Positions 5,742-23,026 of a DNA stretch of 32,000 bases are shown here, piece after piece. Made by a program: the position numbers and the translations under genes. The stretch comes from Xylanibacter ruminicola 23 (GTDB lineage: Bacteria; Bacteroidota; Bacteroidia; Bacteroidales; Bacteroidaceae). The notes beneath the pieces are model-generated. The model was not told where the DNA came from. It searched no databases and saw nothing but the letters and a program-made list of their open reading frames with translations. The DNA is taken from the NCBI RefSeq assembly GCF_000025925.1, contig NC_014033.1, forward strand, positions 3,060,001-3,092,000. Direction: 5' to 3'. Position 1 is the stretch's first letter, and each line of letters opens with the position of its first letter.

Positions 5742-5800
5742 ATTATTTTTATATTTCTTTTTTTATTTATTTTTTAAAAATAGAATAAGTAGTATGATAT
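5742..5800. other. Almost pure A/T tract, a candidate DNA-unwinding element or promoter region
   Basis: The sequence attatttttatatttctttttttatttattttttaaaaatagaataagtagtatgatat contains very few G/C. It lies immediately upstream of nadA on the divergent side. Confidence 0.4.
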
Positions 5801-5922
5801 GCCGTGAATATCTTGATAACTTTTTAGCGTTTTTATTGTATAATTGACTATTAACTACAAAAAATCACTTATTAACCATTACTGTTAATTCTTTCTGTCT
5901 GATAATGAACCACTAAGCATAC

Positions 5923-6108
5923 TTATCCACAATTTCCAATTTCGGTGCAAAATTAATAAGTTTATTATTTATTTTGGCATAAAAGTGTGGAAAACTTGCG
6001 AAAATATACGTAATAAACCTGTGGATATCCCCAAATGTAAGAGTGTAGGGTATAATTAACAAGTTATTAACATAGTTATCCACACACTTATCAACAGGTT
6101 TTTCCACA
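5923..6108. promoter_or_regulatory. Cluster of six DnaA-box-like 9-mers
   Basis: There are two perfect TTATCCACA boxes at 5923-5931 (+) and 6076-6084 (+). Four 1-mismatch variants are present: TTTTCCACA at 5986-5994 (-) and 6100-6108 (+), ATATCCACA at 6020-6028 (-), and TTATCAACA at 6088-6096 (+). The last three boxes are head-to-tail with starts exactly 12 bp apart. Confidence 0.6.
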
Positions 6109-6152
6109 ATTATTTGGTAGTTTGTTTTCTATGTAGTAACTTTGCAGGCAGA

Positions 6153-6683
6153 ATGAAGAAGTTACGTACAATAGAAATGGATCGTCTGACTGTCGACGAG
6201 TTTAAGCAGGCAGACAAGTTGCCACTCATTGTGGTGTTAGATGATGTGCGATCAATGCATAATGTGGGTAGTGTTTTCCGTACGGGTGATGCTTTCCGTA
6301 TCGAGGCAGTTTATCTTTGTGGTATTACCAGTACACCACCTATGGCCGAGATTCATAAAACAGCTCTTGGTGCCGAGGATAGTGTAACATGGAAATACTT
6401 CGATACGGCACTTGAGGCAGTTGAGACATTAAAGGCTGAAGGCTATGAAGTTTATTCTGTTGAACAAGCTCATGGTTCAACCATGCTTCAGAACTTTACA
6501 CCTATTAATAATAAGAAGTATGCTGTGGTGTTAGGCAACGAGGTAAAAGGTGTTCATCAGGAAGTCATCGATGCTTCGGATGGTTGTTTAGAGATACCTC
6601 AGTTTGGCACCAAACACTCCATGAATGTATCAGTAACAGGTGGCATCATCATCTGGCATTTTGCAAAAAATATCATTCTTTAG
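6153..6683 (+). CDS. TrmH/SpoU-family RNA 2'-O-methyltransferase
   Basis: SPOUT motifs are present: 'NVGSVFRTGDAF', 'VVLGNEVKGV' and 'LEIPQFGTKHSMNVSVTGGI'. I prefer the ATG at 6153 (MKKLRTIEMDRL) over the TTG at 6114 given by the ORF track, which yields 176 aa. Confidence 0.85.
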   Translation: MKKLRTIEMDRLTVDEFKQADKLPLIVVLDDVRSMHNVGSVFRTGDAFRIEAVYLCGITSTPPMAEIHKTALGAEDSVTWKYFDTALEAVETLKAEGYEVYSVEQAHGSTMLQNFTPINNKKYAVVLGNEVKGVHQEVIDASDGCLEIPQFGTKHSMNVSVTGGIIIWHFAKNIIL

Positions 6684-8784: not shown

Positions 8785-8809
8785 TACTGTTTAGGTAATA
8801 ATAACAAAG

Positions 8810-8847
8810 AAATCCCACAGAAGTTTTGTTTTCTGTGGGATTTTTCG
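8810..8847 (+). terminator. Rho-independent terminator of the sigma cassette
   Basis: A 13-bp perfect stem pairs AAATCCCACAGAA (8810-8822) with TTCTGTGGGATTT (8831-8843), with an 8-nt loop and a trailing T run. Confidence 0.7.
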
Positions 8848-8886: not shown

Positions 8887-10953
8887 ATGGAAAACAAGAC
8901 TTACAAGCGTACGACGGTGACGTCGGCGCTACCATACGCTAATGGCGGCGTACATATCGGACACCTGGCTGGTGTATATGTACCTGCTGATATCTATGTG
9001 CGTTATCTTCGTCTGAAGAAGCGCGAGGTATTGTTCATCGGCGGAAGTGATGAGCATGGTGTGCCCATTACCGTTCGTGCCCGCAAAGAGGGTATCACTC
9101 CTCAGGATGTGGTTGACCGCTATCATAAGATGATTAAGGATTCGTTCGAGGAGTTTGGTATCTCGTTCGATATCTATAGCCGTACTACCAGTGAGACTCA
9201 TCATAAGTTTGCTGCCGAGTGGTTTAAGAAACTCTACGACGAGGGCAAGCTGACTGAGGAGACTACTGAGCAACTGTACGATGAGGAGGCTAAGCAGTTC
9301 CTGGCCGACCGCTATGTAACTGGTGAGTGCCCACACTGCCACAACGAGGGTGCCTATGGCGACCAGTGTGAGAAGTGTGGACGCGACCTTTCGCCAACAG
9401 AGCTGATTAACCCAAAGTCAACTATCTCTGGTTCTACTCCTGTACTGAAGAAGACCAAGAACTGGTATCTGCCTTTGAACGAGTATCAGGACTGGTTGAA
9501 GCAGTGGATTCTGGAGGAGCACAAGGAGTGGCGTCCAAACGTATATGGACAGTGTAAGAGCTGGTTGGATATGGATCTGCAGCCACGTGCGATGACTCGC
9601 GACTTGGATTGGGGTATCCCCGTACCTGTAAAGGATGCTGAGGGTAAGGTACTTTATGTTTGGTTTGATGCACCTATCGGCTATGTATCAAACACCAAGG
9701 AGCTTTGTGAGAAGGAGCCCGAGAAGTGGGGCAACTGGGAGAAGTGGTGGCAGGATGAGGATACTCGTCTGGTTCACTTCATCGGTAAGGACAACATCGT
9801 GTTCCACTGTATCATCTTCCCTGTAATGATGAAGGCTCACGGCAAGTATATCATGCCTGATAACGTACCTGCCAACGAGTTCCTGAATCTTGAGAACGAT
9901 AAGATTTCAACCTCTCGTAACTGGGCTGTATGGCTCCACGAGTATCTGGTTGATATGCCTGGTAAGCAGGATGTATTGCGCTATGTACTGACAGCCAATG
10001 CACCTGAGACAAAGGATAATAACTTTACTTGGAAGGATTTCCAGGATCGCAATAACAACGAGCTTGTAGCTGTTTACGGTAACTTCGTAAACCGTGCCCT
10101 CCAGCTCACCAAGAAGTACTGGAACGGTGTAGTTCCTGCTTGTGGCGAGTGGCTTGACGTTGACCGTCAAGCAATTGAAGAATTTAAAAATGTAAAAATT
10201 AAGATAGAAGAGAATCTGGAGCAGTTCAAGTTCCGCGATGCTCAGTTCGAGGCTATGAACCTGGCTCGTATTGGTAACCGCTATATCACAGAGTGCGAGC
10301 CTTGGAAGGTTTGGAAGACTGATCCAAAGCGTTGCGAGACTATCCTGAACATCTGCTTGCAGTTGACAGCTAACCTGGCTATTGCCTTTGAGCCATTCCT
10401 GCCATTCAGCAGTAAGAAGCTTCGCGAGATGCTGAACATCAGCAACTTCGAGTGGGAACAGTTGGGTTCTACCGATCTCCTGGAGGCTGGTCATCAGCTG
10501 GGTGAGCCTGCTCTGCTGTTCGAGAAGATTGAGGATGAGGTTATCCAGAAGCAGCTGGATAAGCTGGAGGCTACTAAGAAAGCCAACGAGGCAGCTAACT
10601 ATAAGGCTGCTCCTATCAAGGATACCGTTAGCTTCGAGGAGTTCGAGAAGCTTGATATCCGTGTAGGTCTGGTTAAGGATTGTCAGAAGGTTAAGAAGAG
10701 TAAGAAACTCCTGCAGTTTACCATCGACGATGGTTCTGGTACCGATCGTACCATCTGCTCGGGTATTGCTGCTTTCTACGAGAATCCTGAGGAATTGATT
10801 GGTAAGCGTATCCTCTTTGTGGCCAACTTTGCTCCACGTAACATGATGGGTATCGAGAGTCAGGGTATGATTCTGAGTGCCGTTGATGCCGACGAGAGTC
10901 TGAGTGTGGTTACAACCACTAAGGATGTAAAGCCAGGAAGCCAGGTAGGATAA
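8887..10953 (+). CDS. metG: Methionyl-tRNA synthetase with a C-terminal tRNA-binding (Trbp111-like) domain
   Basis: It has a HIGH-type motif ('[10 protein letters not shown]'), a zinc knuckle ('[18 protein letters not shown]'), a KMSKS-equivalent ('KISTSRN') and the C-terminal segment 'LDIRVGLV...ESQGMILSA'. Confidence 0.95.
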
Positions 10954-10967
10954 TATCTGTTCAATGG

Positions 10968-12410
10968 ATGGAATCTTTGAAGGAAAAAACAGCTAAGGGC
11001 CTGTTTTGGGGTGGAATGAACAATGGCGTTCAGCAATTGCTCGGCCTCATCTTTGGTATCATTCTGGGTCGTTTGCTTAATCCTTCCGACTATGGTCTTA
11101 TAGCCATGATTACCATCTTTTCGCTGATAGCAACCGCTTTGCAGAATAGTGGTTTCTCTACAGCGCTGGTTAACGAAAAAGAGCCAAAAGACAGTGACTA
11201 TAATGCTGTCTTTTGGTTCAATATTTTTATGGGTGGCGTTATCTACTTAACGCTTTTCTTCTCAGCACCATTAATAGCTGATTACTATGATGAGCCCCGA
11301 TTGGTTGCATTATGTCGTTATGCCTTTATCGGGCTGTTATTCAGTTGTAGTGGTGTAGCGCAGGCGGCTTATCTTTATAAGAATCTCAGAGCCCAGCAAC
11401 TGGCTAAGGCTAGCATTACGGCTACTATCCTATCCAGTAGTGTGGCTGCTGTGATGGCTTGGCAAGGTTTTTCTTATTGGAGCTTGGCCACTCAAACTAA
11501 CCTCTTTATTTTGATATCTACCCTGCTGCGCTGGCATTATAGCGATTGGCGCCCTACGCTGAAGGTTGATTTTACGTTTATCCGTAAGGCATTTCCGTTC
11601 AGCGTAAAGATCCTGATTAGCGATGTGCTGACACAGGTCAATAACAACGTGATGAATATGTTGCTGGGTCGTTACTTTAGCGCACATGATACTGGTAACT
11701 ATAACCAGGCCTATCAGTGGAACAACAAGTGTACATCGCTTATCCAAGGTATGGTAAAGCAGGTAGATCAGACGGTGCTGGTAAGCGTAAGGGATGATCG
11801 CGAGCGCCAACTGGCTGTACTGCGTAAGATGGTGCGTTTTGCTGCATTTATCTCGTTCCCTTTGTTGTTGGGATTCGGCTTAGTAGCAAAAGAGTTTATT
11901 GTGCTGGCCATAGGCGAGAAGTGGCTTATATCAGCACAATATCTGCAGTGGATATGTGTGTGTGGTGCTGTGCTACCCATCAGCACATTAATGGCCGATT
12001 TCCTGATAAGTAGAGGTAAATCAGGTACGTTTATGGGCTGTACGTTAGCGTTGGGTTTGCTTCAGATTGTAGCCATGCTAACGCTTTACCCCTATGGTAT
12101 TGCCACGATGGTTAAGACTTACGTAGTACTTAATTTGTTTTGGCTGTTTGTGTGGTTTTTCTTTGCCTGTAAGGATACCAGCTATACCTTATTGCTGATG
12201 CTGAAGGATATCATGCCTTTTGCTTTGGCTGCTGCAGGTGTGATGTTTGCTACAGGTTATATCACCTCGAATATTGGAAACCTGGTGCTGCTGCTCATCA
12301 GTAGATGTATATTGGCAGCTGTACTCTATTATGCTGTGATGCGCCTGGCTGGTGCGCAGATACTGAAGGAGACTACAGATTTTATGATGAACAAAATTAA
12401 AAAACAATAA
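10968..12410 (+). CDS. Polysaccharide/oligosaccharide flippase of the MOP (Wzx-like) family
   Basis: 480 aa with about 12-14 hydrophobic segments. The N-terminus 'KTAKGLFWGGMNNGVQQLLGLIFGIILGRLLNPSDYGLIAM' is typical of polysaccharide-biosynthesis (Wzx) proteins. Confidence 0.85.
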   Translation: MESLKEKTAKGLFWGGMNNGVQQLLGLIFGIILGRLLNPSDYGLIAMITIFSLIATALQNSGFSTALVNEKEPKDSDYNAVFWFNIFMGGVIYLTLFFSAPLIADYYDEPRLVALCRYAFIGLLFSCSGVAQAAYLYKNLRAQQLAKASITATILSSSVAAVMAWQGFSYWSLATQTNLFILISTLLRWHYSDWRPTLKVDFTFIRKAFPFSVKILISDVLTQVNNNVMNMLLGRYFSAHDTGNYNQAYQWNNKCTSLIQGMVKQVDQTVLVSVRDDRERQLAVLRKMVRFAAFISFPLLLGFGLVAKEFIVLAIGEKWLISAQYLQWICVCGAVLPISTLMADFLISRGKSGTFMGCTLALGLLQIVAMLTLYPYGIATMVKTYVVLNLFWLFVWFFFACKDTSYTLLLMLKDIMPFALAAAGVMFATGYITSNIGNLVLLLISRCILAAVLYYAVMRLAGAQILKETTDFMMNKIKKQ

Positions 12411-12413
12411 GAT

Positions 12414-13136
12414 ATGAACTATGCTTTGATTATTGCCGGCGGCTCTGGAAACAGAATGGGACAGGATATTCCCAAGCAGTTTATCAACGTTTACGATAAG
12501 CCTGTACTCATCTATACATTGGAGAGTTTTCAGCGTCATCCTATGGTAGATGCTATCGAAGTAGTTTGTCTTGATGGCTGGCATGAGGTGCTTTGGGCCT
12601 ATGCTCGCCAGTTTAATATTACCAAACTTCAGGCTGTTGTAGCTGGTGGAAACAGTGCTCAGGAGAGCATTCGTAATGGTGTGTACGACTTAGAAAGCAA
12701 GGCTTCTGACGATGATATCATCATTATCCACGATGGTATCCGTCCCCTGGTGGATGATACCGTACTTACTGATGTTATCCAGAAAGCTATGCAGTATGGT
12801 AATGGAGTAACATCGTTGCCTTATAATGAACAGATATTCATTGTAAATCCTGACGATGAAACAACCACTAAGCAGTATATTCCTCGCGAAACCTTGCGAC
12901 GTGTATCTACACCTCAGGCCTATCAGTTCAAGAAGCTTGATGCTGCCTATCACGAGGCTTTCGAAAAAGGCATAGGTATTCATGGCTCGTCTTACACCAA
13001 TACCATGATGGTAGAATTGGGTGAGACGCTGCATTTTGCAGCAGGTTCGGATAAGAACATCAAACTTACCACTAAGGATGATCTGGAGATGTTCAAGGGT
13101 TATATGAAAATGGATAAGGACACATGGCTGAAGTAA
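12414..13136 (+). CDS. IspD/TarI-family cytidylyltransferase, predicted ribitol-5-phosphate cytidylyltransferase
   Basis: The N-terminal 'ALIIAGGSGNRMGQDIPKQF' is the nucleotide-binding signature. 'VAGGNSAQESIRNG' is also present. The genomic context is an SDR plus a LicD-family gene. Confidence 0.8.
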   Translation: MNYALIIAGGSGNRMGQDIPKQFINVYDKPVLIYTLESFQRHPMVDAIEVVCLDGWHEVLWAYARQFNITKLQAVVAGGNSAQESIRNGVYDLESKASDDDIIIIHDGIRPLVDDTVLTDVIQKAMQYGNGVTSLPYNEQIFIVNPDDETTTKQYIPRETLRRVSTPQAYQFKKLDAAYHEAFEKGIGIHGSSYTNTMMVELGETLHFAAGSDKNIKLTTKDDLEMFKGYMKMDKDTWLK

Positions 13137-14176
13137 TATCACTCTATAAGCAGCATCCTCTTTATCAGGAGGATTTGGATCGTATCACTCAGTTGGGTGA
13201 TATCAACCGTCTTTATGGCAAATCGTTTATGATATCTGGTGCTACAGGTTTGATTGGCGTTTGCTTGATAGATGCTTTGATGCATCTGAATAAGAAAGGC
13301 GCTAACATCACTATTTATGCCTTGGGGCGTAATCGCGAAAAAGCAGCCTTGCGACTTGGTGAGTATTTTGAGGACAGCAACTTCCATTTTGTGGAGCGCG
13401 AAGCCTCAGAGTCGCTTTTAGAGTTGCCTAAGGTTGATGTAATTATTCCTTTGGCATCTAACACCCATCCATTAGCTTATTCAAAGTATCCCATCGAGAC
13501 TATCAATATTAATGTGAAAGGTGCTGAACAGGCGCTCGAGAAAGCTTTGGCTTGTAATGCGATGGTGCTCTATCCATCAACAGTCGAGGTGTATGGTAAT
13601 GCCCGTGGTGATGATGATTTTACTGAGGATTACACTGGAAAGCTGAACTTAGCTACTTCGCGTGCCTGCTATACAGAGTCAAAGCGACTGAGTGAAGCCC
13701 TCTGTCAGTCGTATATTGCTGAACGTGGTGCTCAGGTTAAGATTGTAAGACTGAGCCGTGTGTTTGGTCCTACCATGCTGATGAGCGATAGTAAAGCCTC
13801 ATCGCAGTTTATCCAGAAGGCTTTGGCTGGCGAGAATATCGTACTGAAGAGTAAGGGCGAACAGCTCTTCTCTTACACCTATGTGGCTGATGCTGTAGGA
13901 GCTATGTTGCACGTGTTGCTGCATGGCGAAGAGGGTGTAGCTTATAATATAGCCAACGAGGCCTGCAATGTGCGCTTAAAGGACTTTGCTCAGCTGTGTG
14001 CCGAGTGGGCCGATAAGCAGGTTGTATTCGAGTTACCTTCAGAAACAGAACAGAAGGGCTTTTCGATTGCTATGCGTGCCGTACTTGATAACAGCCGCCT
14101 TAAGGGATTGAATTGGCATCCTCAGTATGCGATGAAGGATGCAGTGTGTCGTACATTATCAATATTAAAGTCATGA
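13124..14176 (+). CDS. Extended SDR (NAD-dependent epimerase/dehydratase family), candidate reductase partner of the cytidylyltransferase
   Basis: It has a Rossmann 'ISGATGLIG' motif and a catalytic 'YTESK' (YxxxK). It overlaps the upstream gene by 13 nt. Confidence 0.8.
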   Translation: MAEVISLYKQHPLYQEDLDRITQLGDINRLYGKSFMISGATGLIGVCLIDALMHLNKKGANITIYALGRNREKAALRLGEYFEDSNFHFVEREASESLLELPKVDVIIPLASNTHPLAYSKYPIETININVKGAEQALEKALACNAMVLYPSTVEVYGNARGDDDFTEDYTGKLNLATSRACYTESKRLSEALCQSYIAERGAQVKIVRLSRVFGPTMLMSDSKASSQFIQKALAGENIVLKSKGEQLFSYTYVADAVGAMLHVLLHGEEGVAYNIANEACNVRLKDFAQLCAEWADKQVVFELPSETEQKGFSIAMRAVLDNSRLKGLNWHPQYAMKDAVCRTLSILKS

Positions 14177-14979
14177 ATAATCCATATCTGCAGAAGTTCA
14201 AGGAACAGCAACTGCGTGCCTGCCAGCTGAAACAGTTGTCTATTCTCGAAGAGATCGACCGTATCTGTAAGAAGCACCAGATTGGCTATTGGCTTGATGG
14301 TGGTACACTATTAGGTGCAGTTCGCCATGGGGGCTTTATTCCTTGGGATGACGATATCGATATTGCCATGCGTCAGGAGGATCTGGACCGTTTTGTAAGT
14401 GTGGCACCATCCGAACTTCGCGAAGGTTTATTCCTGCAGACACCACAGATTGAACCGCAATCAAAAGAGCCTATCGTAAAGGTGCGCGATCTGAATTCTT
14501 TCTATGTTGAAGGTTCAGATAACTTTGCGGCCGACTATCAGAAAGGTCTTTATGTTGATATATTCCCAATGGTAGATTATCCTACGCTGTCCAAAAAGTG
14601 GGTAAAGCGTATTACATTGGGTATTTCAAAGAGTTATTCTATCCTGCACAAGTCGCATTACTATTCATTTAATGCGTTTGCTGAGTTCTTCTGGTTTGGT
14701 GCCAAATATGCCGTTAATAAGTGCCTTTGGAGTTTGCTTTGCGCCGTTCGTCCTAAGAACGTGTACCTGTCGAATATCCTGATTAATAATGGTTATGGCA
14801 TTATGCATCGCCAGGATTCTGTTTTCCCATTGGGTACTATTAACTTCGAGGGGAAATCATTTAGTGCGCCTTGCAATCCTGATGCTTATCTGAGCGATCT
14901 CTATCGTAACTACATGGAGATTCCGCCTAAAGAGAAGCAAAAGATTCATTCTGTATTCATTATGCCCGAACTGATATGA
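14173..14979 (+). CDS. LicD-family phosphotransferase (LicD/fukutin-type nucleotidyltransferase fold)
   Basis: 'WLDGGTLLGAVRHGGFIPWDDDIDIAM' is the LicD signature. I prefer the ATG at 14173 (MNNPYLQ), which forms an ATGA overlap with the SDR stop, over the ORF-track start at 14113. Confidence 0.8.
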   Translation: MNNPYLQKFKEQQLRACQLKQLSILEEIDRICKKHQIGYWLDGGTLLGAVRHGGFIPWDDDIDIAMRQEDLDRFVSVAPSELREGLFLQTPQIEPQSKEPIVKVRDLNSFYVEGSDNFAADYQKGLYVDIFPMVDYPTLSKKWVKRITLGISKSYSILHKSHYYSFNAFAEFFWFGAKYAVNKCLWSLLCAVRPKNVYLSNILINNGYGIMHRQDSVFPLGTINFEGKSFSAPCNPDAYLSDLYRNYMEIPPKEKQKIHSVFIMPELI

Positions 14980-16001
14980 AACAACCCGCAAAGACTGATA
15001 TTGCTGTTCTGCTGCTGTTCTTTAATCGTGCAGATACTTTCCGCCAGGTTTTCGAGGCGGTTAAGGAGGCTCGCCCCTCAAAGCTGTTTCTCTACCAGGA
15101 TGGTCCTCGTGGCGAACGTGATATGGCTGGCATAGAGGCTTGTCGTGCGATTGTGAGCGATGAGAACATCGACTGGGAGTGCGAGGTGCATCGTATGTAT
15201 CAGGAAAAAAACTATGGCTGCGATCCTTCTGAGTATATCTCGCAGAAATGGGCTTTCTCTATCGTTGATAAGTGCATGGTGCTTGAGGACGATGATGTGC
15301 CCTCACAGTCGTTCTTTCCTTTCTGTAAGGAGATGCTTGATAAGTACGAGAACGACGAGCGTATCAGTATGATTTCGGGCTTTAATATCGATGAGGTTAC
15401 AGAGGATTGTCCTTACGATTACTTCTTTACCTCAACATTTGGCATCTGGGGCTGGGCGTCGTGGCGACGCGTTATCGATCAGTGGGACGGTCAGTATTCA
15501 TTCCTCGACGATGCGTATAATATGGCACAGCTAAAGGCTTTGGCCGAGCAGCGCAAATACAGAAAGGATATGATTAAGATGTTCGCCAATCATCGTGCTA
15601 CTGGCAAGGAGTACTACGAGAGTATTTTCTGGGCATCCATGCTGTTTAATTCTGGTCTGGCCATTCTTCCTTCAAAGAACCAGATAAATAATCTGGGTTT
15701 AATGGCCGATTCTACGCATTTTACCGCTTCGGCCAAGACCACACCCAAGCGCTTCCTTAAAATCTTTACCATGAAGCGTTATGAGTTGGAATTTCCACTT
15801 AAACACCCTAGATATGTGATTGAGAATGTAGGTTATAAGGACAGACTATACAAGATTCTTGCATGGCGTCATCCTTTAACCAAGATCAGCTATTCGTTAG
15901 AGGAGTTGTGGCTTAATATCCGATATGGCCAGTTTGGTAATATATCGAAAGCTTTTTCGCGACGTATCCGTAAGTGGTTAGGCACAGAAAAGCATGCCTG
16001 A
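14976..16001 (+). CDS. GT-A-fold glycosyltransferase (GnT-I / 'HlpA-like' nucleotide-diphospho-sugar transferase family), putative
   Basis: 'DIAVLLLFFNRADTFRQVFEAV...LFLYQDGPRGERD' together with an acidic 'LEDDD' motif resembles this family. It forms an ATGA overlap with the LicD gene. Confidence 0.6.
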   Translation: MKQPAKTDIAVLLLFFNRADTFRQVFEAVKEARPSKLFLYQDGPRGERDMAGIEACRAIVSDENIDWECEVHRMYQEKNYGCDPSEYISQKWAFSIVDKCMVLEDDDVPSQSFFPFCKEMLDKYENDERISMISGFNIDEVTEDCPYDYFFTSTFGIWGWASWRRVIDQWDGQYSFLDDAYNMAQLKALAEQRKYRKDMIKMFANHRATGKEYYESIFWASMLFNSGLAILPSKNQINNLGLMADSTHFTASAKTTPKRFLKIFTMKRYELEFPLKHPRYVIENVGYKDRLYKILAWRHPLTKISYSLEELWLNIRYGQFGNISKAFSRRIRKWLGTEKHA

Positions 16002-16020
16002 TATTGAGGCATGCTTTTTT
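15988..16020. terminator. Bidirectional-looking terminator between convergent operons
   Basis: The stem pairs AGCATGCCT (15991-15999) with AGGCATGCT (16007-16015) and is extendable by A:T pairs. The loop is 7 nt and is followed by TTTTTT (16015-20). It sits between the stops at 16001 (+) and 16023 (-). Confidence 0.7.
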
Positions 16021-16022
16021 CG

Positions 16023-17426
16023 TTATATGATAGCTTTGATAGGCGATAGCAGGAAATCGGTCAGCAGATAGCCGTTATATATTAATAGGTATATAGTCAT
16101 AGCTGCCACTACCCATCTTAGCCAGCTTGTTTGTACGGCTTTAAATAGATAGGCTGTAGCAATGGGCAGTACAAATGCCCAGTGTGGCGTCATGATATAT
16201 ATCTCGTTAAGGCCGAAACCTAAGCCGATGTGTATCAGCATGTCGAAGGCAAATCCAGACAGGCAGAGCCAAAGGAAACGGCTTTTACGTCCCATCCACA
16301 CGCCTATCACAAAGAACAGCAGTATAAGTGCTTCGATGATATAACTGAATACCCAGTTGTAACGTACAAATACTGGACGATGAACCAGCACATCCTCTAG
16401 GAAGTAGTCCTGATGGAACTGCAGCGACTCGCCAAACAGGTTCTCATAGGTAGATTGCCAGCGCGATGTAGAGATGTCTGTCCACTTCAGGAAACCGTAA
16501 TTCTCCATAGGCTTACCAGTCTTGGCTGCCTGGCGCTGTAATACCTTATCGCGACGGGCTTTCTTGGCCTCGTACTGCTCTTTCTGTTCAGCAGTCATCT
16601 GGGCCACACGTGCCTTTTGCTGTTCTGCTTTCTTTGCTTTCTGTTCTGCGCGTGCCTTTTCTTTGGGCAGCACATACGTGCGATACTCCCATTGTGCCGT
16701 TCCCCACAGCAAGGCAGCTGGCAGGATAACAGCCAACAACAGGTATTTTGGACGGAAGAAATCGCGCAGATTTACAAAGAATCCTGATAAGAAAACCTTC
16801 ACACCATTGCTCAGCGTAACACCTGCTGTGATATAGAACAGAATGGCCGACTGCCACCACTTGAACTCACGGCGCTTTTTGATGCATACACCTGAGATAT
16901 AGAGCGTGATGAGCAGTAGGAACATGGATATTGTAAAATGGTCGGGCACGATGGCTGCCATCAGAATATATGCCATCGAGAAGAAGTAGGTCGTGAGCAG
17001 CGTTGCATCCTTTTGTCCTAACTCTATCACCTCGCGATGAATGCGATACAGGAAGATGTATGAGTAGAAAGTACAGAATATCAGCAATCCTGCTACCAGA
17101 TACTGCACGCAGTTAACGCCTAACAGCCAAGTAAGCCCCTCGTTAATAACCCACAGCGGCCATATCATAAACGACAGCAACGGGTGGCGATACACCTGAT
17201 ACACCACATCCCAGTTGGTTACGCCCAGATAGGTAAGCGGGTCGTAGCCCGACAGATGCAGCTCGTGTTCGAAAGCCTTCCAATAGGGGCCGAAACCTGG
17301 TTGCATAAACAACTCGTGCATACGGAAGATAAACATAGCGTTGAGGGCTATGATAACCATAAGAGCAATCGTCGACTGCCAGCGTTCTTCGGGTTTAATC
17401 TTGAATATCTTAAGTGGATTTCTCAT
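16023..17426 (-). CDS. Polytopic membrane protein of unknown function with a K/A/E/Q-rich charged insert
   Basis: 467 aa with many hydrophobic segments. A soluble insert is present: 'PKEKARAEQKAKKAEQQKARVAQMTAEQKEQYEAKKARRDKVLQRQAAKTGKP'. It forms an ATGA overlap with the HAD gene. I can assign no family motif with confidence, and a GT-C-like role is only a guess. Confidence 0.7.
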   Translation of the reverse strand: MRNPLKIFKIKPEERWQSTIALMVIIALNAMFIFRMHELFMQPGFGPYWKAFEHELHLSGYDPLTYLGVTNWDVVYQVYRHPLLSFMIWPLWVINEGLTWLLGVNCVQYLVAGLLIFCTFYSYIFLYRIHREVIELGQKDATLLTTYFFSMAYILMAAIVPDHFTISMFLLLITLYISGVCIKKRREFKWWQSAILFYITAGVTLSNGVKVFLSGFFVNLRDFFRPKYLLLAVILPAALLWGTAQWEYRTYVLPKEKARAEQKAKKAEQQKARVAQMTAEQKEQYEAKKARRDKVLQRQAAKTGKPMENYGFLKWTDISTSRWQSTYENLFGESLQFHQDYFLEDVLVHRPVFVRYNWVFSYIIEALILLFFVIGVWMGRKSRFLWLCLSGFAFDMLIHIGLGFGLNEIYIMTPHWAFVLPIATAYLFKAVQTSWLRWVVAAMTIYLLIYNGYLLTDFLLSPIKAII

Positions 17427-18007
17427 TGTCTGAATGGTTTAAAATATGATTCGTCGGCAAATGCCAGCATTTCTTTGTCGCCACGACTATCGCCAAAGGC
17501 AGTCAGGTGATAATCCTTTCTGTCGGGAAAGAGGGTCAGGATACGGCTCACCTTTTCCTGGCCATAGCAGTTCTTGGTAAGAAAGCGTCCTGTCAGCTCG
17601 CCATCAATCACTTCAATCTGTGTGCCCAGCACTTTTACATCAGTAAAGAAAGGCTGCACCCAGTTATCGATAGATGCGCTTACTATCAGCACCTCCGCCC
17701 CCTCGTTCTGGGCTTGCTGTATGGCCTTGATGCCTGCAGGGCGTAGCAGATACTGCGATGAGGCTGCAAAGGCTTGGCAGAGGGCGTTAAAATCCTCGAT
17801 AGTCATACCCTTAAAGAAGTATGCAAACACCTTTTGTTTGGCTTTCCAGTTAGGATAGAGCCCCAGTTTCATCAGCACCAGCAGATGGGCATAGCGTGCA
17901 AAGCCCCATCCAAAGGCCAATGTGCCCTTGGCAAAACGGATAAACTCTATCAACGTATCCTTAGTTGTCAGCGTTCCGTCGAAATCGAAGGCGTATATCT
18001 TCTTCAT
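17423..18007 (-). CDS. HAD-IB family hydrolase/phosphatase
   Basis: Motif I is 'YAFDFDGTLT'. The C-terminal 'FGDSRGDKEMLAFAD' is motif IV. A cap-domain insert is typical of subfamily IB. Confidence 0.85.
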   Translation of the reverse strand: MKKIYAFDFDGTLTTKDTLIEFIRFAKGTLAFGWGFARYAHLLVLMKLGLYPNWKAKQKVFAYFFKGMTIEDFNALCQAFAASSQYLLRPAGIKAIQQAQNEGAEVLIVSASIDNWVQPFFTDVKVLGTQIEVIDGELTGRFLTKNCYGQEKVSRILTLFPDRKDYHLTAFGDSRGDKEMLAFADESYFKPFRQ

Positions 18008-19032
18008 ACTCTAACGATGAGTTTCAGTATCTTTTGTAGTGCCCATGCCAAAGGGATGGTAATCACGATGGTGAGTAAGGCCGTAAGCCAGTATCCCAGA
18101 TGGTAGGGGATGAGGTAGGTCATCACAAAGTGATCGTGTATCAGATAGGCCTCCAGACTGAGGGCACCAAAGAAAGCGCAGAAGCTGTTGAACCATCGCG
18201 GCGTGCGACGGAACACACGGTTCAGCATCATAATCAGCGTGATGGTAAACGGTATGTATATCATACGCTCTACAAACAAGGGGAATCGTCCGTGCGAAAT
18301 CTGCTCCAGATACACACACGAACTGAAGGTAGCCACAAAGATAGCCACTATCATCCAGATGCCTGCACCATCAATCTTGGTTTGTTTTCGCACCAGTTCG
18401 CCGCAGTTAATGCCGATAAAGAAGATGGGCACGCGGCTCCAGAATATCTCGATATGCCCTACGGCCTGATGCAATGGGGCTATCCATTGCACCCAGATGC
18501 ACCATAGAATCATAACTACAGGCATCCATCGGTAAACGGGATGGCGCTGAATCAATCGCATGTAAGGCGGGGCCCAGAGGTAGAGCATCATAATGGCTGG
18601 GATATACCAGAAGGTGAGCTCGTCGTGCAACCAGAAGTCCCAGTTAATGGCGATGTCGCCAATCAGGTCGATATAATCGCCGTTTGTCCAGTCGAATCGT
18701 GGCAGATAGAAGAGCGATGCCATTACCAGCCAGGCAGGATAAATACGCAGCAGGCGGCGCTTGTAGAACTGCCACAAAGCTGGATTCTTTACCCACGAGA
18801 ACCAAAGGCCGATACCACTCAGGAACAGGAACATATCTACCCCCACATTACCACATCGCCTTAATCCGAAGAACTCGTTACTACGAGCCAGCGGCACGTG
18901 GAACAGGATGATGAACAGCATAGCTGCTCCCATCAATTCAGCGCGATAACGGCTAATGTTGGCCAGTTCTATATCCTTTATCTTCACAGTTTGGGACTTG
19001 GCAGTTGGTCTATCAGCTTCTTGAATAACCAC
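18004..19032 (-). CDS. Acyltransferase family 3 (membrane O-acyltransferase)
   Basis: It is polytopic, and 'RAELMGAAMLFIILFHV' is the N-terminal acyltransferase-3 signature. An alternative GTG start at 18987 would give a 4-nt GTGA overlap with the upstream stop instead of a 49-nt overlap. Confidence 0.8.
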   Translation of the reverse strand: MVIQEADRPTAKSQTVKIKDIELANISRYRAELMGAAMLFIILFHVPLARSNEFFGLRRCGNVGVDMFLFLSGIGLWFSWVKNPALWQFYKRRLLRIYPAWLVMASLFYLPRFDWTNGDYIDLIGDIAINWDFWLHDELTFWYIPAIMMLYLWAPPYMRLIQRHPVYRWMPVVMILWCIWVQWIAPLHQAVGHIEIFWSRVPIFFIGINCGELVRKQTKIDGAGIWMIVAIFVATFSSCVYLEQISHGRFPLFVERMIYIPFTITLIMMLNRVFRRTPRWFNSFCAFFGALSLEAYLIHDHFVMTYLIPYHLGYWLTALLTIVITIPLAWALQKILKLIVRV

Positions 19033-20072
19033 GAGAGGAACAGCGTTGCTACCACGTAGAGCAGCAACCCTGCATACATATCATCATAAATGTAAGGTCG
19101 CACAATGATTTTTCGAACCAGCGGATGGGCCACAAAGATAGCTGACGAGATACCACCCACCCAGACGCTGTACGACAGCATCCATTCGGGCATTACTTTT
19201 ACAAGTGCAATGGTGCCAACAACGATAAATGCAGGAACCCATAGCCAGCCTTGGAAGTTTGAACTCAAAGCTACGATGAGGGCAACAGCGAGTAATAAGG
19301 CTATAATATATTCCCAGTTAGGGAATATTTTGTTCCCAACGTGGGAATGTTTTGTTCCCAACGTGGGAATAATTGTTGGTATTCTAGCTGCCAACAAGCC
19401 TAAGCCGAAAGGCAGCACGCCGCCAATCAAGTTATAACGTAATCGCTCCAGCAAAACAGCATCGTCCTGGCAGGAAAGTTGCCACAACCAGCACAGAACT
19501 ATCATACCTGCAACTACACCCCAGTGGCGCCAGCGATAAAGTACCAGGCGATAGAAAATGTAAAGCTGCAAGGTAATGCTGAAGTACCAGTAAGGACCAG
19601 GCCAAACCACATGCGAGGGATCCTCGAACAGGTTGGCAAACATGCCCAGCATACCAACCACCGCTGTCCAGGTATAGCGATGCATGCCTGGGGTGATGGC
19701 ATCGAGCAAGATAAAGGCCACAAAGCCTACGATAAAAATGCGGAACAACTTAAGATAGTTGTAGCGTACAAATCGCCACAAACCTACCTCGGGTAACTTG
19801 CCCTGTTCGTATTTCTTAACCAGTCCGTAACCACTCAGAAAGAGGAATACGGGCACGCCATAGTGGCCGAAGAACGACACCAGATGCATGGGTAACTGTT
19901 CATCTGGATTAAGAGTGAGGCGCCACAGCTCATCGAACTTGAATTGTTGCCAGGTATATTCGTTCTCTCTCACGATGCCCCTGAGCCAGTGGCAATAGTT
20001 GTGCAGCATGATGGCCAGGATGGCAACACCACGCATGGCAGAACACTCTTTTCTTGATAACAGTTCTTTCAT
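18984..20072 (-). CDS. Acyltransferase family 3 (membrane O-acyltransferase), second paralogous-type gene
   Basis: 'MRGVAILAIMLHNYCHW' and the C-terminal 'GGISSAIFVAHPLV' fit the family, and the protein is polytopic. It forms an ATGA overlap with the upstream gene. Confidence 0.8.
   Translation of the reverse strand: MKELLSRKECSAMRGVAILAIMLHNYCHWLRGIVRENEYTWQQFKFDELWRLTLNPDEQLPMHLVSFFGHYGVPVFLFLSGYGLVKKYEQGKLPEVGLWRFVRYNYLKLFRIFIVGFVAFILLDAITPGMHRYTWTAVVGMLGMFANLFEDPSHVVWPGPYWYFSITLQLYIFYRLVLYRWRHWGVVAGMIVLCWLWQLSCQDDAVLLERLRYNLIGGVLPFGLGLLAARIPTIIPTLGTKHSHVGNKIFPNWEYIIALLLAVALIVALSSNFQGWLWVPAFIVVGTIALVKVMPEWMLSYSVWVGGISSAIFVAHPLVRKIIVRPYIYDDMYAGLLLYVVATLFLSWLFKKLIDQLPSPKL
19308..19370. repeat. 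Three phased palindromes (TTCCC-N-GGGAA cores) including a 21/22-bp perfect tandem duplication, inside the acyltransferase ORF
   Basis: The units are ATATTCCC-agtta-GGGAATAT (19308-19328), TTCCCA-acg-TGGGAA (19333-19347) and TTCCCA-acg-TGGGAA (19355-19369). Their centres at 19318, 19340 and 19362 are exactly 22 bp apart. The 21-mer TTTTGTTCCCAACGTGGGAAT occurs at both 19328-19348 and 19350-19370. Confidence 0.8.
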
Positions 20073-21907
20073 TGCTTCTTTAACTGGTTATAATCTGTTA
20101 CGCCTTTCAGGATACGTGGACGTTTGGTGTCGTAAGCCGGACTCACGATGTTATACTGCTCGTGATAGAGAGGCGAGGCAATACCGCCAAAGTACATCAG
20201 CAGGTGTGGCAGCACATCTGTCATCATCGGACGGTTTCTGGCCTCCTGGATAGCTGTCCAGCCGTATGGGTGGTTTTCGCGATACTTTGGCGATCCCCAT
20301 ATCCAGAACGGAATCTCCATCTCGTTGCGTGCCAGGCGGTAATCGATGTTGGCGCCATGCATACGTCCGTACATATATGGCTCGCCATCAAATATCTCTT
20401 CGGCATGATCGGGCATGTAGATTACTATAGCATCCTTATCGGCAAAGCGCTGGGTAACTGCCCATACAATCGAGTCGTTATAACGTACAGAGTTGTCGTA
20501 ATCGGCCAGAATCATACGCTGTTTTTTGGTAAGTTCAGGACGATTGTACATATCCTCCTTCAGATACTTATGGGTAGCATTCTGCGGATATCGCGACTTG
20601 TACATCAGGTGCGAACCCATCAGATGCAGGATAATCAGATTATGCTCCTTATCCTCCTTCTTCAGACGGTCGTACTCCTGCAGCACGCCCTCGTCATAAG
20701 GATAAAGACGGGTGTTACGTGTATCAAACAACTTTTTGCTCAGATCAGGATTGTTCAGGAAGAAACCTCCGCTGAAGTCGTAAACAGCCTCGTTAGCCTT
20801 CGACTGGAACTGGTTGGTGATAAACGTAACGTGATAGCCTGCCTTGCGGAATACTTCTGGGAAGAGTGGTTTATCGCACCATTCCTCTTTTTCGCCGATG
20901 GCCTGCAGCGACAGGATGTTCTTGAACACAAAACTGGTAAGATTCCAGGGTGCTACCACATCGGTAAATGGTACCAGCGTGCCCTCTTGTGCCAAAGCCT
21001 TCTGCTTGGGTGTGGTGGGCATGTTGTAGCCATACAGCTGCGAGTGGTGCTTGTTGTAGCTCTCGCCGATAATCAATACGATGTTAGGCACACGATAACT
21101 ACAGCTATCTATCTGCACCTTCTCGCTGGCAGCTTCGAGCTGTACTAACTGGTTGTCGGCCAGGTGGTTGGCGTACATGCTGAATACCAATCGGTAGATA
21201 GGTACATAGAATTCGGCCTTGTCCTTACGCGTAAGCTCGTGCTCCATCTGACCCACGGTGGTGTGGGTAAACATGCGGTGCATAGCCTCTTTGTTGGGCC
21301 AAACAAGTGTTACACAAGAGCAGAGTGCCCAAGCTACGATTACACCTACAATGGCGTTGTAGCCCTCGATAACAATGGGGGTCATCTTGGGCAGAATCAG
21401 CCTGTTGCTGAGATGTCTGGTCATTCGGCGAATCACCGTCCAAGCGATGTGCACCAGCGCCAAGAGCAGTACCCAGCCTACTTTTGATGTAACTACATCC
21501 CATGTAATATAGCCACGCAGAAACTCGCTGGCCTCCTGACCTGTGGTTTCGTTAGCCAGCATCAGCATGGTGGGGGTAAGAGTCGACTCAAAACGTACGT
21601 AGCAGTACATATCCACAATGGCTGTGGTGTATAGCAGGATGTAGAGTAGCGCTCGCACCCAATAGCGAACCTTTCGGGGTATCAGCGTAAGCACTACGCA
21701 TACGGCGTAGATATCCAGAAACAGTTCGGGTTCGGAAAACTGGTATGGTTCGGCACCTTTGCCTACCAGATAGACGGGCATCAGTTCCAGTTGTGTACAA
21801 ATCATTCCCAGCGCAAACATAAACACAAAGAATGCGCTGTTTTTCTGGATGGGCATAAACAGGGCGCCAATCCACTTTAATGGGTTTATTTTCAGTCCTT
21901 TAAGCAT
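20069..21907 (-). CDS. Phosphoethanolamine-transferase-like enzyme (N-terminal TM domain plus sulfatase/alkaline-phosphatase superfamily domain)
   Basis: The N-terminus has about 5 hydrophobic helices. It is followed by 'NIVLIIGESYNKHHSQLYGYNMPTTP', which is an EptA/CptA-type motif, and 'YMPDHAEE', which is a metal-binding-region motif. Confidence 0.8.
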   Translation of the reverse strand: MLKGLKINPLKWIGALFMPIQKNSAFFVFMFALGMICTQLELMPVYLVGKGAEPYQFSEPELFLDIYAVCVVLTLIPRKVRYWVRALLYILLYTTAIVDMYCYVRFESTLTPTMLMLANETTGQEASEFLRGYITWDVVTSKVGWVLLLALVHIAWTVIRRMTRHLSNRLILPKMTPIVIEGYNAIVGVIVAWALCSCVTLVWPNKEAMHRMFTHTTVGQMEHELTRKDKAEFYVPIYRLVFSMYANHLADNQLVQLEAASEKVQIDSCSYRVPNIVLIIGESYNKHHSQLYGYNMPTTPKQKALAQEGTLVPFTDVVAPWNLTSFVFKNILSLQAIGEKEEWCDKPLFPEVFRKAGYHVTFITNQFQSKANEAVYDFSGGFFLNNPDLSKKLFDTRNTRLYPYDEGVLQEYDRLKKEDKEHNLIILHLMGSHLMYKSRYPQNATHKYLKEDMYNRPELTKKQRMILADYDNSVRYNDSIVWAVTQRFADKDAIVIYMPDHAEEIFDGEPYMYGRMHGANIDYRLARNEMEIPFWIWGSPKYRENHPYGWTAIQEARNRPMMTDVLPHLLMYFGGIASPLYHEQYNIVSPAYDTKRPRILKGVTDYNQLKKQ

Positions 21908-22448
21908 AGAGTTCGTGTTCCTTTATATATTCAGCCACAGCCTTTGGCACCAGATGATTGATAGGCTTGCCTGCCTGGATGCACTCGCGTATTTCGGTGC
22001 TCGAAATGTCGATGAGGTCGAGTCCGTCGATACCACCTTCGCAACCACGACGGGGATAAACGATAATCTGGTACTGATTGCGGATATCATCGGCACGATA
22101 CCACTTGTCAAACAGCTGCCAGTTGTCGCCACCTATCATCAGTACAAACTCGCGGTCGGGATAATCTCGCTTCAGGGCCTCGAGTGTGTTCCAGGTGTAC
22201 GATGGTTTGGGCAGATGCATCTCGTAGTCGCTGGCTATGATGCCAGTTTCGCCTTCAACAGCCAGGCGGGCCATCTCCATGCGTATCTGGTCGTCCAGCA
22301 AATCGGCTTGGGCTTTCAGGGGGTTCTGTGGCGAAACCATCAGCCACACTTCGTCGAGCCCAGCTTTTTCACAAAGCTGACGAGCCAACGAAATGTGACC
22401 GTTATGAATGGGATTGAACGATCCGCCAAAAATCCCCGTTCTTATCAT
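21900..22448 (-). CDS. nadD: Nicotinate-nucleotide adenylyltransferase
   Basis: 'GIFGGSFNPIHNGHI' is the (H/T)xGH nucleotidyltransferase motif. The protein is 182 aa, and 'ISSTEIR' is present near the C-terminus. Confidence 0.92.
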   Translation of the reverse strand: MIRTGIFGGSFNPIHNGHISLARQLCEKAGLDEVWLMVSPQNPLKAQADLLDDQIRMEMARLAVEGETGIIASDYEMHLPKPSYTWNTLEALKRDYPDREFVLMIGGDNWQLFDKWYRADDIRNQYQIIVYPRRGCEGGIDGLDLIDISSTEIRECIQAGKPINHLVPKAVAEYIKEHELYA

Positions 22449-23023
22449 TCGATATCTAAAAAATCCTTGATTATTTCCAAAGCATCAGCCTCGGCATATT
22501 CCAACTTGTCGTTGATAACCACCTTATCGAACTTATCGGCAAACGAGAGTTCGAACTCGGCACGGGCAATACGCTGGTCGATAACCTCGGGGGCATCTGT
22601 TGCACGACCTTCCAATCGTTTGCGAAGTTCGTTGATTGATGGGGGCTGGATAAACAGGCTCAGCGCCTTGTCGCCATAGAATTTCTTGATGTTTACGCCA
22701 CCTTTCACGTCAACGTCGAACACCACGTTCTGTCCAGCTTCCAACTGGTTCTCAACCTGCGACTTCAGCGTGCCGTAAAAGCGGTCGGTATATACCTCCT
22801 CGTACTCCAGGAATTCGTCGTTCTCAATACGCTGGCGGAATTCCTCTGGTGTCAGGAAGAAATAGTCTACCCCGTTCTGCTCTGTGCCGCGAGGAGCTCG
22901 CGATGTGCACGAGATAGAGTAGGCCAGATTCAGTTCCTTGTGCTCTCTCATCAGCCATGAGATAATGGTACTCTTGCCTGTGCCCGATGGAGCCGATATA
23001 ATAATTAATTTACCTTTTGCCAT
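22445..23023 (-). CDS. gmk: Guanylate kinase
   Basis: It has a P-loop 'ISAPSGTGKST' and the motifs 'TSRAPRGTEQNGVDYFF' and 'EYEEVY'. Confidence 0.95.
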   Translation of the reverse strand: MAKGKLIIISAPSGTGKSTIISWLMREHKELNLAYSISCTSRAPRGTEQNGVDYFFLTPEEFRQRIENDEFLEYEEVYTDRFYGTLKSQVENQLEAGQNVVFDVDVKGGVNIKKFYGDKALSLFIQPPSINELRKRLEGRATDAPEVIDQRIARAEFELSFADKFDKVVINDKLEYAEADALEIIKDFLDIE

Positions 23024-23026
23024 CGT

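Follow-up and report, generated by a model that had tools for sequence, protein, structure and literature searches.

The complete 3.62-Mb genome of Xylanibacter ruminicola 23 contains, within the 32,000-nucleotide stretch from 3060001 to 3092000 of NC_014033.1 (hereafter the window), a six-gene operon in which a flippase gene is joined to genes for a cytidylyltransferase, an extended short-chain dehydrogenase/reductase (SDR), a LicD-family phosphotransferase and a glycosyltransferase (GT). With modest confidence we propose that this operon makes a cytidine diphosphate (CDP)-alditol and attaches the alditol phosphate to a protein O-glycan that is flipped by Wzx. The genes and the signals that bound them are the following, in window coordinates:

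8808-8845: strong hairpin terminator upstream of metG, from a terminator scan
8887..10953, + strand: metG for methionyl-tRNA synthetase, with which the operon starts (NF001100, 871 bits)
10968..12410, + strand: wzx, flippase of the multidrug/oligosaccharidyl-lipid/polysaccharide (MOP) type, O-glycosylation type (PF13440, 247 bits; NF058658, 647.7 bits)
12414..13136, + strand: IspD/TarI-family cytidylyltransferase of type A (defined below), 240 aa (PF01128, 128 bits)
13124..14176, + strand: extended SDR of type A, 350 aa (PF01370, 132 bits)
14173..14979, + strand: LicD-family phosphotransferase, 268 aa (PF04991, 143.1 bits against a gathering score of 22.6)
14976..16001, + strand: GT-A glycosyltransferase, GnT-I/GT13-like, 341 aa, here called ORF341 (fold match, no Pfam match)
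15991..16020, + strand: intrinsic terminator at the operon's 3' end

Direct reading of the junctions gives gaps of 14 nt between metG and wzx and of 3 nt between wzx and the cytidylyltransferase gene, which in turn overlaps the SDR gene by 13 nt in a different frame, and the SDR/LicD and LicD/ORF341 junctions are ATGA overlaps of 4 nt each. Because of these tight gaps and overlaps and the hairpin terminators on both sides, the six genes from 8887 to 16001 form one operon, metG-wzx-cytidylyltransferase-SDR-LicD-GT. The closing terminator, a perfect 9-bp stem (15991-15999/16007-16015) followed by a T-run, was found by direct reading of the sequence and was not reported by the consensus terminator scan. 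The reading frames, overlaps, ATGA coupling and upstream Wzx described in the initial annotation lie exactly where it had placed them, and its assignment of the first three enzymes to the IspD, epimerase-type SDR and LicD families is borne out by Pfam profile scores of 128, 132 and 143 bits. Hydropathy reading gives no membrane segments in the four enzymes 3' of wzx, the single hydrophobic window of the SDR (KD19 maximum 1.87) being most likely a strand of its Rossmann fold. The genes predicted to provide a CDP-activated alcohol donor lie directly upstream of LicD and are translationally coupled to it.

The cytidylyltransferase-SDR pair and its product

Three PF01128 genes are present in the genome. 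One of them, beside recG at 2333673-2334335 (5673-6335 of our locus L056), is a canonical ispD that exceeds the curated thresholds of NF001186 (340.8 bits, cut-off 253) and TIGR00453 (203.5 bits, cut-off 181.3). The window enzyme is 28% identical to this protein and stays under every curated NCBIfam cut-off, with 153.6 bits against 253 for NF001186 (IspD), 157.3 against 181.3 for TIGR00453 and 132.7 against 166 for the TarI subfamily NF001183; its top PDB match is the TarI of Staphylococcus aureus (6xhp, 91 bits). The second, canonical ispD considered in the initial annotation therefore exists, so the IspD homologue of the window is not the enzyme of the methylerythritol phosphate (MEP) pathway, a reading also ruled out by the scores below cut-off and the low identity. 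Rather, the window enzyme is predicted to use a ketopentose-5-phosphate or a pentitol phosphate.

The third PF01128 copy is 86% identical to that of the window and belongs to a second CDP-alditol module at about 1704400-1707000 (L055, 10438-12981), situated in a polysaccharide locus with GT1, GT2 and acyltransferase genes, whose LicD is 29% identical to the window LicD. The SDR of this module is broken into three reading frames and is therefore apparently a frameshifted pseudogene. In Palleniella-type loci (L031-L034, L037), the type A pair is preceded, at a distance of 0.2-2 kb, by one more IspD-family gene, which shares 28-31% identity with that of the window and may be the canonical ispD.

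The association of cytidylyltransferase and SDR was analyzed in 48 loci from several phyla that encode a relative of the SDR. An IspD-like gene lies directly upstream of the SDR gene in all 48, hence the arrangement is not due to chance, and LicD adjoins the pair in most of them. The triad is also annotated on an exopolysaccharide (EPS) plasmid of Lactiplantibacillus plantarum. This recurrence across phyla supports the earlier suggestion of a CDP-alditol synthesis pair joined by a LicD transferase.

Two other strains of Xylanibacter (Prevotella) ruminicola, Ga6B6 and D31d, encode SDR proteins 98-99% identical to that of the window. In the PDB the matches of the window SDR are tied between the human UDP-glucuronate decarboxylase UXS1 (2b69, 116.7 bits) and HS5.17 of Campylobacter jejuni (8v4g/8v4h, 115.4 bits). 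HS5.17 is a CDP-6-D-fructose reductase that acts after the fructose-6-phosphate cytidylyltransferase HS5.18, and Mnp1/Mnp2 follow the same route, with cytidylyl transfer first, to CDP-mannitol (PMC10918830). The window SDR aligns with HS5.17 (8v4g) across residues 26-341 at about 30% identity, and 38 residues precede its GxxGxxG motif. Through this pairwise alignment the published ligand contacts of HS5.17 were transferred to the window SDR. The catalytic pair is kept (Y183/K187, corresponding to Y167/K171 of HS5.17), as are R180 (R164, which binds the CDP beta-phosphate), E155 (E140), T114 (T98) and the binders of the NADP 2'-phosphate, R69/K73 (R56/K60). Among the compared relatives Y183, K187, R69 and R180 are invariant, and the position of K73 holds K or R in all but one. 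Five further positions are replaced, namely P116 (S100 in HS5.17), V154 (M139), R212 (Q196), K224 (R208) and F249 (R233), so that the substrate of the SDR cannot be read from the 8v4g structure.

From these sequence comparisons the SDR is predicted to be an NADPH-dependent CDP-ketose reductase and, given its resemblance to HS5.17, cytidylyl transfer probably precedes reduction. The initial annotation had modelled the synthesis on TarI/TarJ and Bcs1; a CDP-alditol synthesis pair stands, while the SDR is neither TarJ-like nor Bcs1-like and resembles HS5.17 instead. Homologue searches with the window SDR, with one from a metagenome-assembled genome (MAG) of Bacilli and with that of the L. plantarum plasmid returned generic names only and no Mnp2 or AbpB, although the last of them pointed to the epa locus described below.

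The contact positions of HS5.17 split the SDR relatives into two signature classes. Type A, with P/V/R/K/K-S/F-or-Y, comprises the window enzyme and those of Palleniella, clostridial and bacillar MAGs, Clostridium beijerinckii, L. plantarum and Enterococcus faecalis. Type B, with S/M-or-L/Q/R/H-or-N-T/R-or-G, comprises those of Collinsella and of two sister species in the genus of X. ruminicola; it keeps most HS5.17 contacts, with the exception of the T195 and F226 positions, and two of its members retain the Arg equivalent to R233. The partner cytidylyltransferases split alike, with identities of 65-76% within type A, 51-76% within type B and 35-38% between the types. Since the glucitol contacts of HS5.17 are retained in type B, this class is the natural candidate for a hexitol.

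For type A, the most informative relative is found in the variable epa region of E. faecalis, which reads Bac_transf, GT2, LicD, GH25, IspD, SDR, GT2 and so on, an order that fits EF2177, EF2176, EF2175, EF2174, EF2172, EF2171 and EF2170 of strain V583. The window cytidylyltransferase shares 67% identity with the enzyme encoded there; the two SDRs share 46% and both carry the type A signature. As isoprenoids are made through the mevalonate pathway in enterococci, the IspD homologue of epa cannot be an isoprenoid enzyme. By NMR, the decorations of the enterococcal polysaccharide antigen (EPA) of V583 contain ribitol-1-phosphate units, and a 'TarI homologue EF2172' has been credited with CDP-ribitol, no TarJ being named (PMC7188991). 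Because the type A pair resembles the epa pair and V583 EPA carries ribitol phosphate, we favour a pentitol as the product of the window pair, probably ribitol over arabinitol. The ribitol phosphate, or related alditol phosphate, put forward in the initial annotation thus draws support from the 67% identity to the epa enzyme, with ribitol itself a probable candidate.

The AbpA/AbpB pair, which makes CDP-D-arabinitol, offers two weaker likenesses. With 240 aa, the product of pneumococcal abpA is as long as the window cytidylyltransferase, and the published PCR primer 9758R, which we infer to lie in abpB, reads G-A-S-G-L-I-G on translation and thereby comes near the Rossmann motif of type A, a weak hint (PMC10118250).

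A hexitol, glucitol or mannitol made from fructose-6-phosphate as in C. jejuni HS:5 or pneumococcal serotype 35A, would give the N-acetylhexosamine (HexNAc)-P-hexitol seen in Prevotella intermedia, and we regard it as rather unlikely for the window pair. It gains from the fact that the sole solved relative of the SDR is the CDP-6-fructose reductase HS5.17, from Raushel's network, which predicts that PF01128+PF01370 pairs make CDP-glucitol or CDP-mannitol (PMC10918830), and from the one Prevotella O-glycan of known alditol, which bears a hexitol (PMC10897501). However, the window SDR has none of the glucitol contacts of HS5.17, most of which are kept by type B (in Collinsella and, next to wzx, in sister species), and the type A pair is matched by that of epa, with its link to ribitol phosphate; the two weak likenesses to the pneumococcal arabinitol genes point the same way.

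The flippase and the target glycan

In Bacteroidales, the lfg locus starts with metG, followed by the wzx flippase gene and by species-specific outer-glycan genes, all transcriptionally linked to metG (PMC12871550, PMC8698959). The X. ruminicola operon starts likewise, with metG at 8887-10953 and wzx at 10968-12410. Its Wzx protein, with about nine or more hydrophobic segments, matches NF058658 ('O-glycosylation flippase', Oglyco_Wzx) over the full length with 647.7 bits (cut-off 720), the next family reaching 171, and it is the best match to this family in the genome, where the runner-up has 245 bits. Since the locus is of this metG-wzx type, the target of the cassette is most likely the general protein O-glycan. 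The idea that a Wzx-flipped glycan is decorated is therefore supported by gene content and can be refined, as the initial annotation had left the choice between lipopolysaccharide (LPS), capsule and glycoprotein.

Similar cassettes are found in related organisms. Among the 48 loci, 25 of Prevotellaceae type also hold an orthologous LicD (52-99% identical), a GT13-like gene (52-100%) and an O-glycosylation-type wzx, with metG upstream in 10 of them. The cassette-linked flippases of related Prevotellaceae contigs are 41-44% identical to that of X. ruminicola and stand in differing gene orders, yet they are still of the O-glycosylation type (NF058658, 577-731 bits, one above the cut-off at 731). 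In the remaining 23 loci, which belong to other Bacteroidales, Firmicutes, Saccharibacteria and Collinsella, the pair is accompanied by a divergent LicD or by no LicD at all, and a GT13-like gene is absent.

Within the genus, 40 other species were searched. A close type A orthologue of the window SDR was found in none of them and homologues of 36-40% identity in six, at a threshold of E<=1e-60 beyond which type B homologues fall, so that relatives are undercounted; type B SDRs were found at E<=1e-70 in nine species. Three sister genomes were inspected: two carry a type B LicD-IspD-SDR triad within 3 kb of an O-glycosylation-type wzx, together with a gene for a DUF6080 protein and the same neighbouring envelope operon, and the third has wzx and DUF6080 only. 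The polyol-phosphate cassette is thus a variable, swappable part of the locus.

Polyol phosphates have been described on the O-glycans of two related genera, as HexNAc(P-glycerol) in Porphyromonas gingivalis and as HexNAc(P-hexitol) in P. intermedia (PMC8729774, PMC10897501), which makes the chemistry less unusual for Bacteroidota than the initial annotation had supposed. The P. intermedia study calls the sugar alcohol novel and names no genes (PMC10897501), and a 2025 review describes the route by which phosphate, glycerol and sugar alcohols are added as unknown. In the literature that we searched, no paper ties LicD or cytidylyltransferase genes to the polyol phosphates of Bacteroidota O-glycans. 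The proteome table of P. intermedia lists three consecutive detected proteins, BWX39_02810 ('dTDP-glucose 4,6-dehydratase', 38.7 kDa), BWX39_02815 (a second 'MEP cytidylyltransferase', 26.8 kDa) and BWX39_02820 ('LPS cholinephosphotransferase', 32.9 kDa), which by name and size correspond to the same SDR-IspD-LicD triad (PMC10897501 supplement). The published P. intermedia glycopeptide DGAVYFLQANDSTLR, back-translated to a degenerate pattern, had 0 matches in 400 genomes of the family.

A second LicD cluster of P. intermedia ATCC 25611, BWX39_00760-00780, all detected as proteins, includes a 'CDP-glycerol glycerophosphotransferase', an aminotransferase and a 51-kDa 'glycerol-3-phosphate cytidylyltransferase' (PMC10897501 supplement), and it is a different phospho-alcohol system from the triad.

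The same enzymology could serve another target, LPS, capsule or exopolysaccharide, the linkage to metG and wzx being incidental, which we consider unlikely. In its favour, the triad occurs in EPS, capsular polysaccharide (CPS) and teichoic-type loci, such as those of Lactiplantibacillus plasmids, E. faecalis epa, Collinsella and the second locus of this genome; moreover, the flippase scores under its curated cut-off and the operon has a single GT gene, unlike the lfg loci of Bacteroides. Against it stand the flippase itself, by far the best of the O-glycosylation type in the genome (647 against 245 bits), the Prevotellaceae cassettes found repeatedly beside such flippases in several gene orders, and the fact that O-glycans in two related genera bear polyol phosphates (PMC8729774, PMC10897501).

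Convergent with the operon, at 16023-17426 (- strand) of the window, lies the gene of a polytopic membrane protein with DUF6080. This family adjoins O-glycosylation-type wzx in other gene orders as well, directly downstream in two loci (L022, 11908-13218; L058, 12876-14312) and duplicated beside wzx in a related one (L059, 5491-8270), and a profile-atlas look-up returned its own family only. As the O-glycan ligase and the oligosaccharyltransferase of the system are still unknown, the DUF6080 protein is a candidate partner. The gene belongs to a convergent operon, 16023-23902 (- strand), that comprises yicC, gmk, nadD, a CptA-like phosphoethanolamine transferase, two Acyl_transf_3 enzymes, a HAD protein and DUF6080, and that is conserved beside wzx in a sister species (L059). 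One may speculate, by analogy with the acetylated glycerol phosphate of P. gingivalis, that the Acyl_transf_3 enzymes O-acetylate the glycan or its polyol.

LicD, the glycosyltransferase and the proposed pathway

The LicD protein carries a WDDDIDI motif (DxD) and no hydrophobic segment. Its only PDB sequence match is FKRP (6kaj), over the DxD region, and among NCBIfam models a cholinephosphotransferase comes closest, with 79 bits where 225 are required. From its family and genetic context it is predicted to be an alditol-phosphate transferase that uses CDP-alditol. Elsewhere in the genome there is a third full LicD gene at 3580606-3581256 (- strand), near a weak nucleotidyltransferase match at 3578887, and, at 113966-115896 (+ strand), a LicD fragment directly 5' of a second wzx-like gene (NF058658, 245 bits).

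ORF341 belongs to a large family (8954 representatives at E<=1e-3) and has no Pfam match, the gathering score of PF03071 (GNT-I) not being reached. A protein-language look-up places it among clusters named 'hemolysin activation protein' or GNT-I-like, and weak Pfam GNT-I matches appear in 7 of 81 diverse homologues, the best at 2.9e-5. An AlphaFold2 model built from these 81 sequences has a pLDDT of 95.9; an earlier one from 11 close homologues (pLDDT 54.7) was set aside. Searched against the PDB with Foldseek, the model finds GnT-I first (1fo8/1foa, E 1e-11, TM-score about 0.5), then POMGnT1 (5ggf/5ggi) and GnT-II (5vcr); POMGnT1 and GnT-I also head a sequence profile search of the PDB, weakly (E 0.013 and 0.39). 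Of the acidic residues E104, D105 and D106, the first and third are invariant among the 81 homologues and the second is nearly so. On the basis of these Foldseek matches the model identifies ORF341 as a GT-A enzyme that, among solved structures, is nearest to inverting UDP-N-acetylglucosamine (GlcNAc) transferases, and this confirms at the level of the fold the glycosyltransferase proposed earlier for the last gene. We predict from the model that it is a HexNAc (GlcNAc) transferase acting alongside LicD.

In the pathway that we propose, the IspD-family enzyme would first join CTP to a ketose phosphate, most likely D-ribulose-5-phosphate or D-xylulose-5-phosphate. The extended SDR would then reduce the CDP-ketose with NADPH to a CDP-alditol, our best guess being a CDP-pentitol with ribitol favoured. 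At the cytoplasmic face, the soluble GnT-I-like enzyme would put a HexNAc on the undecaprenyl-linked outer glycan, and the soluble LicD would move the alditol phosphate from CDP-alditol to the glycan, by analogy onto that HexNAc. Finally, Wzx would flip the finished unit, destined for periplasmic and membrane glycoproteins. What the analysis establishes is gene content, operon structure, families and folds, conserved linkage and the separate canonical ispD; substrates, reaction order, acceptor and final target are inferred from these.

Several observations weigh against this proposal. For the SDR, UDP-glucuronate decarboxylase scores equally well, the polyol contacts S100, M139, Q196 and R208 of HS5.17 are all replaced, and F249 occupies the position of an Arg that binds pyrophosphate (Arg233 in HS5.17, Arg277 in UXS1), so that CDP may be held differently than in HS5.17. 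The E. faecalis strain compared here matches V583 in the order of the first seven epa genes only, and EF2171 was assigned by its authors to UDP-rhamnose synthesis (PMC7188991). As for the target, the flippase remains below the NCBIfam cut-off (647.7 against 720 bits). Bacteroides lfg loci hold several GTs and end in a conserved BF4306-type fucosyltransferase gene, whereas the X. ruminicola operon has one glycosyltransferase gene, the GnT-I-like one, after which it terminates; no search aimed at a BF4306-type gene was made. The triad of P. intermedia, in turn, is known by annotation and protein mass, not by sequence, and is not next to metG.

The equal score of UXS1 could also mean that the SDR is an unrelated nucleotide-sugar enzyme, a UXS-like decarboxylase or dehydratase that feeds the glycosyltransferase, with the cytidylyltransferase using an alditol phosphate reduced elsewhere in a TarJ-like manner. 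UXS1 is indeed the top PDB score (116.7 bits), and for the neighbouring SDR of E. faecalis a part in UDP-rhamnose synthesis has been guessed (PMC7188991). Nevertheless, we hold this to be very unlikely and reject the decarboxylase, as the SDR stands beside a cytidylyltransferase in 48 of 48 loci, including loci with no GT13-like gene, and the two proteins fall in matching type A and type B classes. Arg277 is needed for UXS1 activity, so the Phe at the aligned position argues against a decarboxylase, as may the N-terminal extension, which resembles that of HS5.17. That LicD transfers phosphocholine or another amino-alcohol phosphate, as the naming of the family and its best NCBIfam match (79 against 225 bits) would have it, is barely credible and was rejected, for the operon has no LicA-, LicB- or LicC-type genes and the linked nucleotidyltransferase is of the IspD/TarI type and paired with a reductase.

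The enzymology of the proposed CDP-alditol route is not new, as a CDP-alditol pair with LicD is common in capsule and teichoic-type loci. New with respect to the literature searched are its placement in an O-glycosylation operon, the co-travelling GT13-like gene and the alternation of type A and type B beside wzx. Together, if true, these three features would give a gene assignment to chemistry already seen by mass spectrometry. In Bacteroidota, hundreds of periplasmic and membrane proteins bear one species-specific O-glycan, and for one species the operon offers a concrete answer to how such a modification could arise, through a cytoplasmic LicD that uses a dedicated CDP-alditol before Wzx flipping. 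Tentatively, the cassette and, in sister species, the type B triad next to wzx might account genetically for the polyol phosphate that branches from the HexNAc in protein O-glycans of Bacteroidota, with rumen Prevotella possibly diversifying a glycoprotein epitope by swapping pentitol and hexitol cassettes at one and the same locus. A type A or type B pair beside an O-glycosylation wzx would then be a genomic marker that could predict pentitol or hexitol phosphate on Prevotella glycoproteins.

Comparison with known systems

As in HS5.18/HS5.17, Mnp1/Mnp2 and AbpA/AbpB, a PF01128 cytidylyltransferase adjoins a PF01370 extended SDR in the window; the likeness to the Mnp and Abp pairs is drawn from published descriptions, not from their sequences. 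With HS5.17 the SDR shares the catalytic Tyr/Lys, the NADP 2'-phosphate binders, the Arg for the CDP beta-phosphate and apparently an extension before the Rossmann fold. It is about 30% identical to HS5.17 and differs in the glucitol contacts, which are all replaced (P116, V154, R212, K224, F249). The pneumococcal order wcxG-abpA-abpB resembles the LicD-IspD-SDR order of the Firmicutes relatives. The epa region of E. faecalis (EF2172, EF2171, LicD EF2175/EF2168) has a similar pair with the same SDR signature and a LicD in the locus, although the LicD proteins are 23% identical and the target there is the decoration of a rhamnopolysaccharide in a Gram-positive wall; the roles of the epa enzymes are proposals in the literature, not assays.

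TarI/TarJ and Bcs1/Acs1 similarly combine an IspD-fold cytidylyltransferase with a reductase partner, and a CDP-pentitol is likely the product in X. ruminicola too. TarJ of S. aureus and Streptococcus pneumoniae is a zinc-dependent medium-chain (MDR) alcohol dehydrogenase, whereas the partner in X. ruminicola is a PF01370 extended SDR of the nucleoside diphosphate (NDP)-sugar type. Unlike in the fused Bcs1/Acs1 of Haemophilus influenzae, cytidylyltransferase and reductase are encoded on separate reading frames and, in contrast to TarI/TarJ and Bcs1, cytidylyl transfer probably comes first. The mammalian system of ISPD (CRPPA), FKTN/FKRP and POMGnT1 on alpha-dystroglycan also brings IspD-fold, LicD-fold and GT13-fold enzymes together on a protein O-glycan; the similarity is remote, glycan and compartment are others, and in X. 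ruminicola the glycan would be assembled on a lipid carrier and only then passed to protein, which makes this an analogy only.

A further parallel is the lfg locus of Bacteroides fragilis and the general O-glycosylation of Bacteroidota, where metG comes first, an O-glycosylation-type wzx next and outer-glycan genes after, and where the genes beside the flippase are exchanged among related species, as they are here. What sets the X. ruminicola operon apart from the lfg descriptions consulted here is the CDP-alditol/LicD module that it bears.

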